Shown here in pieces: positions 5,886 through 42,197 of a stretch of DNA of 57,816 nt. Origin of the DNA: Candidatus Brennerbacteria bacterium (GTDB taxonomy: Bacteria; Patescibacteriota; Minisyncoccia; UBA6257; GWB1-50-10); assembly GCA_043799565.1 (NCBI GenBank), contig JAZDNP010000004.1:1-57816 (forward strand). The letters are read 5' to 3'. How positions within the stretch are numbered: position 1 is the stretch's first letter; every line of letters begins with the position of its first letter. A program made the position numbers and the translations under genes. Under the pieces are notes generated by a model that ran no database searches, was not told the DNA's origin, and was given only the letters and a program-made list of their open reading frames with translations.

Positions 5886-5974
5886 GCGGCCATGGTTCCC
5901 GCCCAAAACGAAGTATTGTGGCGGGTCCGCCTGAATGTCCGCCTTCGGCGGCTTTCGGCGGATAGTGGCAGGAT
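5886..5974 (+). pseudogene. orphan 5' part of tRNA-Gly (nt 1-12 and 13-24) split by a 65-nt hairpin-rich insert
   Basis: GCGGCCATGGTT (5886-5897) equals 6251-6262. TAGTGGCAGGAT (5963-5974) matches 6263-6274 at 11/12. The two blocks are contiguous in the intact tRNA. Confidence 0.75.
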
Positions 5975-5983
5975 GAACTAATA

Positions 5984-6265
5984 ATGTTTTACACGTACGT
6001 TTTGCTATGTGAAGACAGCGCGCGAGGTCGGCGAAAACTTTATGTCGGTTCGACCGATGATTTACACGCCCGTCTCCGAGAACATGAATCGGGGAATGTG
6101 AAAACTACAAAAAGCTTTAGCAAGGTATCGTTAGTGTATTATGAGGCATGCAGGAACAAAAAGGACGCAAAAAAGCGGGAGCTGCAGTTGAAAACAGGCT
6201 TTGGAAGGGGTTACATTAAGAAGCGGATAGAAAGTGACTTAGATAAAGAAGCGGCCATGGTTTAG
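5984..6265 (+). CDS. small GIY-YIG nuclease family protein (93 aa)
   Basis: FYTYVLLC...KLYVGSTDDLHARLREH...YYEAC...KRELQLK pattern (GIY / YIG / Arg / Glu). The last 5 codons overlap the tRNA-Gly 5' end. Confidence 0.85.
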   Translation: MFYTYVLLCEDSARGRRKLYVGSTDDLHARLREHESGNVKTTKSFSKVSLVYYEACRNKKDAKKRELQLKTGFGRGYIKKRIESDLDKEAAMV

Positions 6266-6321
6266 TGGCAGAATACGACCTTGCCAAGGTTGAGACTCGG
6301 GTTCGATTCCCGATGGCCGCA
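6251..6321 (+). tRNA. tRNA-Gly(GCC)
   Basis: GCGGCCATGGTTTAGTGGCAGAATA-CGACC-TTGCCAA-GGTTG, T-arm TCGGG-TTCGATT-CCCGA, acceptor TGGCCGC. Confidence 0.9.
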
Positions 6322-6375
6322 CAAAGCAAAAACTACCAGAAAGGGTACTATAATTAATTATAGTACCCTTTCTGG

Positions 6376-7650: not shown

Positions 7651-8235
7651 TCACTTCTTCGTTTTGATAATCTCGTCTATGAGGCCGTACTGCTTTGCTT
7701 CTTCTGCGGTAAGGTAGAAGTCGCGGTCGGTGTCGCGCTCAATGCTCGAGAGTTTTTGCCCCGTGTGCTTCGCGAGAATCTGGTTCAGTTTGTCCTTGAT
7801 TTTTACGATGTGCTTTGCGGTAATCTCTATCTCGATTGCCTGACCCTCGGCACCGCCCATCACCTGGTGGAGAAGTATTTCGCAGTTCGGAAGCGCGAGG
7901 CGCTTGCCTTTTTTCCCTGCGGCGAGCAGAACCGCGCCCATGGATGCCGCCATGCCGACGCAGATGGTGGACACCGGGTTCTTCACATATTGCATCGCGT
8001 CGTAGATGGCGAGGCCCGCGGTTACAGAACCGCCCGGTGTGTTCACATATATTTTAATGTCCTTTTTCTGGTCCTCATGTTCCAAGAAGAGGAGTTGTGC
8101 GATAACCGCGTTCGCGACCACGTCGTTGATAGGGCCGCCGAGGAAAATGATGCGGTCCTTCAATAGGCGCGAATAGATGTCGTACGCGCGCTCACCGTAT
8201 CCAGTTTTTTCGATAACGGTAGGTATAAGGTTCAT
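7651..8235 (-). CDS. clpP: ATP-dependent Clp protease proteolytic subunit
   Basis: [22 protein letters not shown]...[19 protein letters not shown]...MGAAS-type motifs. Start trimmed to MNLIPTVIE. Confidence 0.9.
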
Positions 8236-17297: not shown

Positions 17298-17951
17298 CTA
17301 CGCCTTTGCGAAGACGAGGGCGGTGATGTGGCGGGCGCCTGAGGATTTCAGTACACGTGTGGCTTCCGCAAGCGTGGCGCCCGAGGTTGTGACGTCGTCT
17401 ACAAGGAGGATATTGTTCCCGCGGACGGATTGTATGTCCGAAACCTCAAAACAGTTCGCCACGTTTTTCTTCCGCGCCTCATAGTCGGGTCTCTCCGTCT
17501 GTGTTTCCGTCTGGCGGACTCGTTGCAACGCCGAAACGAGCGGAACGTGTCGGAATGGTTCATGGTGCTGCAATGCCTCCGCAAAAAGCACGCTTTGATT
17601 GAATCCGCGTTCCCGTTCACGCTTCGGATGGAGTGGTATCGGCGCCATACGCCAGTCGTTATTGGTGAGAAATTCATGTTCCAACGCGTCACGAGTTGCC
17701 GCCGCAGTAATAAGCGCGAGCGTGGATGCAGCTCTTTTGTTGCCGCCGTATTTGAGGGCTTTTATCAACGCCTGCGCTTCGGGTGACCCATACAAAGTTG
17801 CCGCAATGAGCGTGTAGGGAAGTTTAGGGTTGTGGAGGCATAATCCAAAACGCGGAATTCGTGAGATGCACGAGGCACAGAGCGTTTCGCCTCCGGCATC
17901 AAGAAAATCGCCGCATGCGACACAGAGCGAAGGAAAAAGCGTTTCAAGCAT
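17298..17951 (-). CDS. comF: ComF family protein (phosphoribosyltransferase domain)
   Basis: N-terminal Cys pairs CVACGD...CASC and C-terminal ILLVDDVTTSGATL PRTase motif. Start trimmed to MLETLFP, because the track extension runs into the repeat element. Confidence 0.75.
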   Translation of the reverse strand: MLETLFPSLCVACGDFLDAGGETLCASCISRIPRFGLCLHNPKLPYTLIAATLYGSPEAQALIKALKYGGNKRAASTLALITAAATRDALEHEFLTNNDWRMAPIPLHPKRERERGFNQSVLFAEALQHHEPFRHVPLVSALQRVRQTETQTERPDYEARKKNVANCFEVSDIQSVRGNNILLVDDVTTSGATLAEATRVLKSSGARHITALVFAKA

Positions 17952-18011
17952 TACGTGCCACCACGAATACATACATATATATAGTAGCGCGCACGTGTTA
18001 GAATGGGTGTA

Positions 18012-18136
18012 ATGAATCCCGTTAGAAACAACCAAATTTAATGGTTATGCATACCGAAAAACACCTCCGATTGTTTCTAAAGGTCTCGTGTAACATACAC
18101 GGTCGCCTGCAGGCGACCTGTTTCTAACGGGATGAA
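18012..18136 (+). mobile_element. ORF-less mini copy (125 bp) of the ATGAATCCCGTTAGA...TCTAACGGGATGAA element, ending on the pilM start codon
   Basis: 15-bp perfect inverted repeat ATCCCGTTAGAAACA (18016-18030) / TGTTTCTAACGGGAT (18119-18133). ATGAA at both ends. Internal palindrome GGTCGCCTGCAGGCGACC. Confidence 0.8.
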
Positions 18137-19244
18137 TCTCGGTTTTGTTAAGGATTTTTTCACCGACATCAGGAATTTCTTCTCCTTCGGGCGCGTACTC
18201 GGAGTGGATATTGGCACGGTGTCCATAAAACTCGTGGAACTCGCGCGGAAAGGGGATGTCGTTTCTCTCGAGAATTACGGCATGGTTACCTCTAAGGAAT
18301 ACCTGAAGCGTCCGAATGCAGTCGTCCAATCGAGCTCGCTCAAACTCTCCGCGCGCGATGCCGCCCCACTTCTCAAAACATTGGTGGACGAAGTAAAGCC
18401 GAAAGCGAAGAAGGTCATCGCCTCCGTGCCCGCGTTCGCGTCGTTCGCGGTGCCGATAGAAATGCCGCTTATGAGCCGTGAGGATACCGAGAAGTCCATC
18501 GGGTTCCAGGCGCAGCGCTTTATCCCTATGCCGGTCACCGAAGTTTCATTTGAATGGGAAAAGGTGGGGGAATACGAAAGTGCGGAAGGACGGAAGTTCC
18601 AGCGCATTCTCCTTGTTGCGGTACCGAACGAGATCGTGAAGACCTATCGCGAACTTTTTCACGCGGCGGGACTCACCCTTTCCGCATTGGAGGTGGAACA
18701 TACGGCGCTCGCGCGTGCAATAACCTCGCCGTCCTCGCGCCACACGATGCTCGTGGATATCGGGGCCGAATCCACCTCCATCATAGTTACGGAAGGAACG
18801 ACGGTGCGTGCGGTGGGACAGGCGGACTACGGTGCGGTCACTTTAACCCAAGCGCTCGCGCGAAATCTTGGGGTGTCCGAAACGCGTGCGGAAGAGCTGA
18901 AGAAGCGGCGAGGTCTCATGGTGGGTGAGGGAGAATACGAGTTATCCACCTCACTTCTTCCTTTTTTGGATGTTATAATACGAGAGTGCGAAAGGGTGCG
19001 CGCAAGTTATGAGCGCACGTTTGCTCACCCAATCGAGCGTTTCACATTGGTCGGCGGCGGCGCAAATCTGCTCGGCATTGAGCGGTACTTTGCGGAAGCG
19101 CTCGGCATTTCACATGAGCCGGCGCGCCCATTTTCCAAGGTGAGATATGACGCCGGGTTGGAGCCCGCGATGAGGACCTTGAATCACGACCTTGCGGTTG
19201 CAACCGGGCTCGCTTTGAAGGTCTACCTAACCCCTCAACTATGA
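18132..19244 (+). CDS. pilM: type IV pilus assembly protein PilM (actin-like ATPase fold)
   Basis: VLGVDIGTVSIKLVEL N-terminus. 370 aa. First gene of the pilMNO block. Confidence 0.8.
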   Translation: MNLGFVKDFFTDIRNFFSFGRVLGVDIGTVSIKLVELARKGDVVSLENYGMVTSKEYLKRPNAVVQSSSLKLSARDAAPLLKTLVDEVKPKAKKVIASVPAFASFAVPIEMPLMSREDTEKSIGFQAQRFIPMPVTEVSFEWEKVGEYESAEGRKFQRILLVAVPNEIVKTYRELFHAAGLTLSALEVEHTALARAITSPSSRHTMLVDIGAESTSIIVTEGTTVRAVGQADYGAVTLTQALARNLGVSETRAEELKKRRGLMVGEGEYELSTSLLPFLDVIIRECERVRASYERTFAHPIERFTLVGGGANLLGIERYFAEALGISHEPARPFSKVRYDAGLEPAMRTLNHDLAVATGLALKVYLTPQL

Positions 19245-23512: not shown

Positions 23513-23797
23513 ATGAATCCCGTTAGAGACAACAAAACTTATTATGTTTACGTCTTGCGTAGCACTAAAGATAAACGCTGGTATACTGGACTTACCGATG
23601 ACCTACGGAAGCGCTTCAAGGAACACAATGCCGGACATGTTGGGTGGACAAACGGACGTGGCCCATTCGAGCTCATCTACTACGAAATGTGTAAAAACAT
23701 CACTGATGCAAGGTCGCGAGAGAAGTATTTCAAATCAGGCATGGGCAAGCGCTACTTGAAGAATCGCTTGAAGCGCTTCCTGTCTCTAACGGGATGA
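23513..23797 (+). CDS. GIY-YIG nuclease family protein (94 aa)
   Basis: MNPVRDNKTYYVYVLRS...RWYTGLTDDLRKRFKEH...YYEMC...REKYFK. Start ATG lies in the left arm. Stop TGA overlaps the pilC ATG (ATGA). The track start at 23495 overlaps pilT and is rejected. Confidence 0.85.
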   Translation: MNPVRDNKTYYVYVLRSTKDKRWYTGLTDDLRKRFKEHNAGHVGWTNGRGPFELIYYEMCKNITDARSREKYFKSGMGKRYLKNRLKRFLSLTG

Positions 23798-34678: not shown

Positions 34679-34974
34679 TTGCGGGGGCGGGAATTGAACC
34701 CGCTGCCTTCTGGTTATGCATCTCGCTACGGCTTTCGCCGCCTCCGACATAAAGTCGTGAGTTTGCGGTCTGGACTATACCTTCACCCCTAAGGGTGCTC
34801 GCCGTCTAGTCTCTACACCTTGTCGCGCGAGGCGACCTTGGCTCGGTATTACCATTTCTCGAATTGAAAAGAAGGCTTCACCGAGTTTGACGAGTGTTCC
34901 ATGAATCCTTTCGGAATCATGAGCCCAAATTGAGCCAGGCGTGCAACCGTTACACTTCCCCGCGGAAAAAGTAT
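34679..34974 (-). tRNA. initiator tRNA-fMet(CAT) interrupted by a 224-nt group I intron in the anticodon loop
   Basis: Exon 1 (34974-34943): CGCGGGGAAGTGTAACGGTTGCACGCCTGGCT. Exon 2 (34718-34679): CATAACCAGAAGGCAGCGGGTTCAATTCCCGCCCCCGCAA. C1:A72 mismatch and A73 as in bacterial initiator tRNA. The spliced loop would be CTCATAA. Confidence 0.85.
34719..34942 (-). ncRNA. group I intron (IC3-like, no ORF)
   Basis: The 5' exon ends in U and the intron ends in G. P2 is CATGATTCC-GAAA-GGATTCATG. Core strings CCGAGCCAAGG and AAGGTGTAGAGACTAGACGG...CCTTAGG...GGTATAG closely resemble the Azoarcus tRNA-Ile intron core as I recall it. Confidence 0.85.
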
Positions 34975-42083: not shown

Positions 42084-42197
42084 ATGAATCCCGTTAGAAA
42101 TTGTGGTGCTATTCATCCTATACGCATGAACTATTCAATACTATATCCTGCGAACATCAAGCAGTCGAGCATGCCCTACTATTTCTAACGGGATGAA
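42084..42197 (+). mobile_element. ORF-less mini copy (114 bp) of the inverted-repeat element, ending on the cca start codon
   Basis: 14-bp perfect inverted repeat ATCCCGTTAGAAAT (42088-42101) / ATTTCTAACGGGAT (42181-42194). ATGAA at both ends. Confidence 0.8.

Follow-up and report, generated by a model that had tools for sequence, protein, structure and literature searches.

The DNA analyzed here, hereafter the window, is a stretch of 57,816 nucleotides from a Candidatus Brennerbacteria bacterium (assembly GCA_043799565.1, contig JAZDNP010000004.1). It contains a 125-bp palindromic element that lies between a comF-like gene and the divergently oriented pilM and overlaps the start codon of the latter (Table 1). 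An initial annotation of the same DNA had proposed that this element is bounded by perfect 15-bp arms, that its terminal ATG is the initiation codon of pilM, and that it lacks the nuclease gene of a longer element located at 23513, of which it keeps the first codons (MNPVR) followed by an early TAA. It had also pointed out a partial internal copy of the arm, a perfect palindrome and a TAGAAT hexamer 7 nt upstream of the element's ATG. Each of these descriptions is borne out, with a single minor correction to the coordinates. The arms, ATCCCGTTAGAAACA and its complement, are perfect over 15 nt, the terminal ATG opens a reading frame that matches PilM_2, and the only open reading frames (ORFs) within 18012-18136 are two upstream ORFs (uORFs) of 9 and 28 codons, without any transposase gene.

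When the arm 15-mer was searched for with up to two mismatches, six matches were found in the window against 0.13 expected, a number reached in none of 100 shuffled sequences. The six matches delimit three elements (18012-18136, 23513-23797 and 42084-42197), that is, two short copies and one full copy in 58 kb. In all three, the right arm ends in AT, which together with the next G makes up the ATG of a long ORF (pilM, pilC and the gene of the CCA-adding enzyme, respectively). The 42084 copy is preceded, 8 nt upstream, by TGTACAAT, and contains an uninterrupted uORF of 34 codons that runs from the upstream ATG to the TAA of the arm.

Table 1 Features of the pilM locus and related sites in the window
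Feature	Position	Strand	Remarks
Nuclease-less element copy	18012-18136 (125 bp)	+	Overlaps the pilM start codon
Left inverted-repeat arm ATCCCGTTAGAAACA	18016-18030	+	Codons 2-6 of MNPVRN
Right inverted-repeat arm TGTTTCTAACGGGAT	18119-18133	+	Holds TAA 18125-18127; last two bases are the AT of the pilM ATG
Target ATGAA, upstream copy	18012-18016	+	Original pilM start codon (captured ATG), now a uORF start; single ATGAAC in the empty sites L131-L133
pilM	18132-19244	+	370-aa ORF; PilM_2 Pfam match, E = 7e-36; ATGAA 18132-18136 is the downstream target copy
uORF1, MNPVRNNQI-stop	18012-18041	+	Stop TAA overlaps the next ATG (TAATG, 18039-18043)
uORF2, 28 codons	18041-18127	+	Stop is the TAA of the right arm, whose first base is 7 nt upstream of the A in the pilM ATG
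Internal arm-like copy TGTTTCTAAAGG	18072-18083	+	11 of 12 positions match the arm; coordinates counted from the sequence
Subterminal hairpin GGTCGCC-TGCA-GGCGACC, palindrome GGTCGCCTGCAGGCGACC	18101-18118	+	Adjoins the right arm
Extended -10-like box TGTTAGAAT	17996-18004	+	TAGAAT 17999-18004 preceded by TGT; 7 nt separate it from the captured ATG
ComF-like phosphoribosyltransferase with zinc ribbon	17298-17951	-	Divergent upstream gene; Pfam Pribosyltran and DZR_2; same neighbor in L130-L133
Nuclease-coding copy, putatively autonomous	23513-23797 (285 bp)	+	94-aa GIY-YIG ORF spanning arm to arm
Second ORF-less copy	42084-42197	+	Flanked by tRNA-Arg (minus strand) and the gene of the CCA-adding enzyme (ATG 42193)
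Empty ATGAA target where a clpP-like gene starts	8231-8235	-	An 84% identical gene in L042 holds an element there

The predicted fold of the 18012 copy is one long hairpin closed by the arms, with the A and the U of the pilM AUG paired in the stem. In the folding check proposed in the initial annotation, the terminal stem formed with both types of molecule, at -46.2 kcal/mol (z = -6.3) for RNA and -26.5 kcal/mol (z = -6.5) for single-stranded DNA. The internal arm-like copy TGTTTCTAAAGG is a possible alternative pairing partner for the left arm; its region was also detected by a fuzzy arm scan, as a right-arm match with three mismatches. Rfam, run on the whole window at gathering score, gave no match to the element. 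Its membership in a known RNA family was rejected, the best hit to 17980-18170 in a search with E-values up to 10 being an unrelated sRNA model (E = 0.23).

An insertion into the pilM start site

The PilM of the window itself had no identical entry on record in an exact look-up. A search with the PilM protein provided contigs from four close relatives (L130-L133, PilM 85-88% identical) in which the comF-pilM gap is 23-39 nt long and devoid of the element. The empty site whose existence the initial annotation had suggested looking for is thus present. In three of these relatives (L131-L133), TGTTAGAAT is followed by seven bases and a single ATGAAC, and the fourth (L130) has a single ATGCAT at the pilM start, without a TGTTAGAAT-type box. 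In the window, TGTTAGAAT and seven bases are followed by ATGAA-T-CCCG...CGGG-ATGAA-TCTC, so that ATGAA stands on both sides of the element. Since the relatives have a single ATGAAC, this arrangement corresponds to an insertion with a 5-bp duplication, and the comparison shows, at the level of the sequence, that the 18012 element was inserted into a formerly empty pilM start site. A second pair of sites works in the reverse direction: the clpP-like gene of the window begins at an unoccupied ATGAAC (8235, minus strand), and its counterpart in a Jorgensenbacteria metagenome-assembled genome (MAG; L042) is filled.

The pilM start is also occupied in L121 (PilM 76% identical), which is one of the only two loci retrieved by a metagenome scan with PilM. 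The L121 element has the same arms and a largely different interior, which includes one uninterrupted frame of 39 codons. Two scenarios may explain this distribution: either the pilM site received an element on two occasions, or an old insertion disappeared precisely from the lineage of L130-L133. Mobility follows under both of them. The arrangement TGNTAGAAT-N7-ATG is kept in L121 and in L131-L133, at filled and empty sites alike. A simple promoter scan did not find a -35/-10 pair at the 18012 locus; the position of TGTTAGAAT, 7 nt from the captured ATG, would nevertheless imply a leaderless or nearly leaderless transcript. Besides the two pilM starts (window 18132 and L121 1028), elements occupy the starts of pilC in the window (23794), L055 (206) and L020 (1123), whose PilC proteins are 44-54% identical. 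The occupation of the same gene start in distant genomes may reflect target hot spots or very old insertions.

The nuclease gene and its short relatives

The 23513 element is placed between the stop codon of pilT (23508) and pilC, and its TGA overlaps the pilC ATG (ATGA, 23794). The same overlap with the following gene was seen in every full-length copy examined (window, L123-L129 and L131), the genes downstream of nuclease copies being those of a glycosyltransferase, SmpB, a sugar transferase and PilC. One of the relatives with an empty pilM site (L131) has, like the window, a nuclease copy at its pilT/pilC junction: the nucleases are 92.6% identical, the DNA of the two elements 89.8% and the flanking genes 79-82%.

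The inverted-repeat arms are made up of the first and last six codons of the nuclease gene (MNPVRD and LSLTG-stop), and the resemblance between the short copies and the gene continues beyond them. Past the left arm, the short copies match the gene start (AGA-RAY-AAC-CAAA, codons RDNK; AGAAACAACCAAA corresponding to AGAGACAACAAAA). At their right end, ACGG, a hairpin and CCTGTTTCTAACGGG correspond to the ...GAAGCGCTTCCTGTCTCTAACGGG of the nuclease gene (codons LKRFLSLTG), the subterminal hairpin itself being the counterpart of the gene palindrome GAAGCGCTTC (codons LKRF). Since the subterminal sequences of both gene ends are kept, the short copies look like internal-deletion derivatives of the nuclease element. 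The homologues of the 94-aa ORF, which number in the thousands and are nearly all exactly 94 aa long, are 89% identical in MNPVRD and 89-96% in the last 24 residues (including RFLSLTG) against about 62% in the core. This higher conservation of the ends than of the core fits a double role of the ends as protein and as DNA signals. Taken together with the empty sites, the shared subterminal sequences support the derivation from the 23513 element proposed in the initial annotation, and we consider with high confidence that the 18012 copy is a non-autonomous copy of a mobile element.

A hairpin that is perfect over 6 bp or more adjoins the gene-proximal arm in 37 of 122 copies (27 of them in one register, with 28 different stem sequences among the 37) and the distal arm in 11, so that the orientation of the elements is biased rather than fixed.

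The nuclease is a member of the Pfam family GIY-YIG (PF01541, E = 1.8e-16); NCBIfam gave only a sub-threshold match to group I intron endonucleases. Seven catalytic-type residues (Y13, Y24, G26, R34, H38, E58 and N84) are invariant in 41 sequences. The only solved structures matched by sequence are two UPF0213 proteins from structural genomics (1zg2 and 1ywl). An AlphaFold2 model (pLDDT 85) had as its first fold match the UPF0213 protein BH0048, followed by Slx1 and At-HIGLE (probability 1.00, TM about 0.6; 7cq2, 6seh, 4xlg, 7wme); the catalytic domains of UvrC and I-TevI were far weaker matches. The 94-aa protein amounts to a nuclease domain alone, the C-terminal helix of which is basic. Slx1 and HIGLE are described, also by the depositors of their structures, as nucleases of branched DNA, and the modeled fold suggests that the Slx1-like nuclease of the element probably recognizes the hairpin or cruciform formed by the arms. 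To our knowledge, GIY-YIG nucleases are not a recognized class of transposases; we infer with moderate confidence that this one mobilizes the elements.

A second GIY-YIG gene is present in the window (5984-6265, plus strand). It encodes a protein of 93 aa that is 40% identical to the first, lacks the CCCGTTAGA arms and is located directly 5' of tRNA-Gly (6251-6322), the first 24 nt of which are repeated upstream (5886-5974) in two pieces, separated by GC-rich hairpins totalling about 65 nt. A similar GIY-YIG gene lies between tRNA-like sequences in L004, and these genes may constitute a separate, tRNA-associated family of GIY-YIG elements. Elsewhere in the window, 34755-34942 (minus strand) matches the Rfam group I intron model just at its gathering score (50.2 versus 50 bits), and no long ORF is listed there.

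The wider family was studied in one genome per species through exact paired 11-nt arm cores lying 75-105 nt apart; the copy counts given below refer to the copies among the loci listed by this exact-arm scan plus the window. At least 120 loci have exact paired arms. They belong to numerous lineages of the candidate phyla radiation (CPR), such as Saccharibacteria, Kaiser-, Nomura-, Wolfe-, Yanofsky-, Kerfeld- and Levyibacteria, and a few come from MAGs labeled as Sedimentisphaerales/Planctomycetes, Omnitrophota or WOR-3. Several assemblies contribute two to four of the listed loci each, and the paired-arm pattern had no match in viral contigs. The family is apparently common and widespread in Patescibacteria (CPR), and apparently undescribed. 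The Sedimentisphaerales/Planctomycetes-labeled MAGs with copies are L063, L078, L079 and L089; L063, L078 and L089 have a common arm extension (AGACCT/AGGTCT) and carry their copies at start codons. If these taxonomic labels are followed, the family may extend beyond the CPR.

An ORF of at least 60 aa begins exactly at the terminal ATG in 126 of 152 copies, and most exceptions are either cut off by the end of the locus or upstream members of tandem pairs. With about 85-90% of the copies on start codons, the random placement that the initial annotation had considered as an objection is not observed. The 129 downstream genes among the listed loci belong to 118 different Pfam families, which indicates that they do not form a regulon; recurrences are mild and limited to glycosyltransferases (5), PilC (4, as T2SSF matches) and PheT (3). 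The left flank of the copies reads ATGxA-T-CCCG... and the right flank ...CGGG-ATGxA, where x is A, G or C and is identical on both sides in about 94 of 96 copies. The flanking repeat is 4-6 bp long, a few copies having 4- or 6-nt repeats. In a 140-kb sample, about 45% of the genes begin with ATGRA and start codons represent 39% of the ATGRA sites outside coding sequence, so that a short target combined with the loss of gene-disrupting insertions explains much, yet not all, of the bias toward start codons. Tandem copies share one ATGAA in L062, L014 and L012, from which it follows that the rebuilt site is itself a target. In L012 (5897-6280), three consecutive elements occupy a single start codon, and the arms of the central element are variant (CCCGTAGTAG and CACTACGGG). 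Three copies located away from start codons have ATAAA-like flanks (L015 4497-4605 and L060 1169-1282, with Omnitrophota or WOR-3 labels, and L066 5438-5556, with a Saccharibacteria label), which suggests a looser ATRRA target.

The 11-nt core of the arms is identical in 77 of 77 aligned copies, all of which were retrieved by exact match to that core; positions 12-14 covary between the left and right arms of these copies. Among the copies that escaped this pattern selection, about 18 have perfect arms, 15 have one or two mismatches and some have three or four, whereas control palindromes of the same composition did not produce any pair with fewer than four mismatches. Near-identical copies on the same contig were found in L064 (by eye) and L070 (95%), and are indicative of recent copying. 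An attempt to define sub-families by blastn of the interiors was rejected, as an alignable partner existed for just 14 of the 126 copies; orientation could not be read in this way either.

Translation across the element and competing explanations

The position of the copies raises the question of how the host gene is translated, and the following model can be proposed. The elements target ATGRA, in practice start codons, of which about 5 bp are duplicated. The upstream ATG retains the initiation signals of the host and serves as the start of the nuclease gene or of a short frame, and the downstream ATG, rebuilt at the end of the right arm, stays the start of the host gene. In the RNA, the arms would pair and hide the host ATG. 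Ribosomes initiating at the captured ATG would open the stem, terminate at a stop that either overlaps the host ATG or lies 7 nt ahead of it, and then reinitiate. In the 18012 copy, with a nearly leaderless transcript that would begin at the captured ATG, this would take the form of a relay, from uORF1 through TAATG to uORF2, and from the TAA of the arm to pilM.

Several observations are consistent with this model. The right arm TCTAACGGGATGA presents TAA in one frame, TGA in the second and the host ATG in the third. In 33 of 96 copies, no stop interrupts the frame of the captured ATG anywhere in the element, against about 10 of 96 for the other frames and 9.3 +/- 2.9 for shuffled interiors; as the left arm by itself puts stops in the two other frames, this control used only interiors and their shuffles. 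Of 126 copies, 72 hold a frame of 25 codons or more that terminates on the TAA or TGA of the arm (41.6 +/- 5.1 in shuffles). The reading frame of the host gene itself is open across just 7 of 126 copies versus 23.1 +/- 4.2 in shuffles. The uORF peptides have nothing in common past MNPVR, which suggests that the act of translation, and not its product, is selected. Reinitiation by relay over internal stops would apply to just four further cases in the family. Altogether, these frame statistics lead us to propose, with moderate confidence, that termination-reinitiation coupling maintains the expression of pilM.

Regarding initiation itself, a Shine-Dalgarno-like motif precedes about 13% of 827 control gene starts taken from all loci, which hints that leaderless or Shine-Dalgarno-independent initiation may be common in these genomes. 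A -10-like box is found 4-10 nt upstream of 32% of the element sites and of 21-24% of the control starts; this signal is modest and a preference of the elements for leaderless genes is not claimed.

In light of the above, the 125 bp at the pilM start are probably an internally deleted, non-autonomous copy of a family of small palindromic mobile elements that insert at start codons, with ribosome coupling and nuclease-driven mobility as its inferred components. Several points weigh against this interpretation. A nuclease domain alone has no evident strand-joining activity, so that host repair or another factor would be needed. The interiors are barely alignable (median identity of 59% within a genome versus 56% between genomes); most copies are therefore old, and current activity is seen only in the few near-identical pairs. 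The conservation of the arms is in part an ascertainment effect of the exact-arm scan, and the arm extensions differ within the window itself, AGAGACA in the nuclease copy versus AGAAACA and AGAAAT in the short ones. The boundary of the element fits a 5-bp duplication with an asymmetric end, and equally a 4-bp TGNA duplication with symmetric ends T...A. Finally, in about two thirds of the copies that have a left ATG, no uORF runs without interruption.

Other scenarios may be considered. One possibility is that the palindromic unit is primary and is moved by host recombination or repair, or by an unrelated transposase, the GIY-YIG gene being a passenger or a homing gene lodged in one copy. The short copies indeed far outnumber the nuclease copies, an armed GIY-YIG gene being found only in the window and in L073 among about 1 Mb sampled; the nuclease has neither a DNA-binding nor a joining domain; and GIY-YIG genes are classic homing passengers. 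A Y1 transposase gene is also located near one nuclease copy (L124), but it is a single case and probably a chance neighbor. Nevertheless, the arms are coding parts of the gene, which thousands of homologues with a constant length of 94 aa have preserved, and the short copies retain subterminal sequence from both gene ends, neither of which is easily reconciled with a passenger. Moreover, the nearest characterized folds are those of branched-DNA nucleases, which would suit a hairpin-forming element. We regard this scenario as rather unlikely.

Alternatively, the 125 nt could mainly be a regulatory leader of the host that gates the translation of pilM by hiding its AUG, their mobile origin being incidental. 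The stem does bury the AUG, the internal arm-like copy could provide an alternative pairing, the frames of the uORFs are kept open, and elements recur at the pilM start in L121 and at pilC starts in the window, L055 and L020. Yet the four closest relatives do without the element, with the same box in L131-L133, so that the conservation of the 125 nt as a leader, the other objection raised in the initial annotation, is not seen. The genes downstream of the family are functionally unrelated, the interiors are not conserved, the 18012 copy has no Rfam match, and no counterpart of the internal arm copy TGTTTCTAAAGG was seen by inspection of the L121 element. As the primary identity of the element a leader is thus very unlikely, while a secondary use by the host is possible. 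A chance inverted repeat or an assembly artifact has a negligible probability, given the six arm matches against 0.13 expected, the same structure in at least 120 independent assemblies and the failure of the control palindromes.

Within the preferred reading, that of a mobile element, a broader proposal can be made, to which we would give slightly less than an even chance: the family could represent a new class of prokaryotic mobile elements, consisting of a single 94-codon gene for an Slx1-like, structure-specific GIY-YIG nuclease, delimited and in part encoded by the inverted repeats. Specialized in start codons, the unit would be expressed from the initiation signals of the host gene, would give the ribosome back to its host by termination-reinitiation and would therefore be nearly harmless. 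Such near-harmlessness would explain the persistence of the elements in hundreds of lineages of genome-reduced bacteria. If the nuclease does mobilize them, a GIY-YIG enzyme would take its place beside the DDE, HUH, serine and tyrosine enzymes among the drivers of repeat spread in bacteria, and the 285-bp unit would rank among the smallest self-contained mobile units known. A start-codon parasite that hands ribosomes on would also be a new solution for life in genomes with almost no spare DNA. In practice, gene callers will misplace starts or call spurious MNPVR... peptides at many CPR genes. The elements also represent natural experiments on translation initiation in the CPR, where Shine-Dalgarno motifs are rare.

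Comparison with known systems

No description of such an element was found in open-access full text, where the arm sequence was also searched for, and an earlier description elsewhere is possible. A survey of MITEs (miniature inverted-repeat transposable elements) in 183,232 genomes (PMC11602168) and a review on MITEs (PMC10969869) do not mention GIY-YIG, start codons or CPR.

The initial annotation had called the 18012 copy MITE- or REPIN-like. The first part of this comparison holds at the level of anatomy: the copy has the length of a MITE, no transposase gene, inverted repeats, a duplication when compared with the empty site, and dispersed copies. More generally, the short copies resemble MITEs such as Correia/NEMIS of Neisseria, ERIC, BOX and RUP in their size of about 100-150 bp, their terminal inverted repeats and short flanking duplication, their many copies without an enzyme gene and their hairpin-forming transcripts; MITEs also affect the expression of neighboring genes. 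They differ from them in the partner with which the 18012 copy has arms and subterminal sequence in common. The 23513 element encodes a GIY-YIG nuclease and no recognized transposase, is only 285 bp long in its full form and has coding arms. Also, MITEs target TA or general intergenic DNA, whereas these copies sit on start codons, with stops and a start in the arm.

The likeness to REPINs (hairpin-forming doublets of repetitive extragenic palindromes, REP) and their REP-associated tyrosine transposases (RAYTs) is one of analogy only. Both systems have a low-copy nuclease-type gene flanked by palindromic repeats and many short hairpin copies, mostly old. Nevertheless, RAYTs are HUH/Y1 enzymes and the gene flanked by repeats here belongs to PF01541; REP doublets are extragenic, typically located after genes, whereas the present hairpin overlaps a start codon and is accompanied by flanking duplications. 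The IS200/IS605 elements and the short elements derived from them, the palindrome-associated transposable elements (PATEs), are comparable in their very small size, subterminal hairpins, short specific target and recognition of single-strand structure; yet IS200/IS605 elements rely on a Y1 transposase and lack both terminal inverted repeats and a duplication, and all three features are the opposite here. The Rickettsia palindromic elements are likewise palindromes of about 100-150 bp from reduced genomes that do not destroy the gene they enter, but they are inserted in frame in coding sequence and translated, whereas in-frame reading is avoided here (7 of 126 copies against 23 expected) and the protein does not include the element.

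The GIY-YIG homing genes, whether free-standing or intron-borne (T4 Seg, I-TevI), resemble the elements in being small selfish genes inserted between those of the host and encoding a GIY-YIG catalytic domain. The domain and its catalytic-type residues are found in the 23513 copy only, the 18012 copy being without the gene. Homing enzymes have a long DNA-binding domain and a single cognate site, and they spread by homologous repair, without inverted repeats, duplications or non-coding derivatives. The present family has inverted repeats and duplications and precedes genes of 118 families, and the fold of I-TevI is a much weaker match to its nuclease than that of Slx1. The closest matches of the nuclease are bacterial UPF0213 proteins (YhbQ/YazA, COG2827) by sequence, and UPF0213, Slx1 and HIGLE by fold. 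Slx1 has a RING domain and acts together with Slx4; neither Slx1 nor HIGLE is known to be tied to a mobile element. As for UPF0213/COG2827, we know of no role assigned to it since 2005 despite its solved structures, and the elements described here may point to its function.

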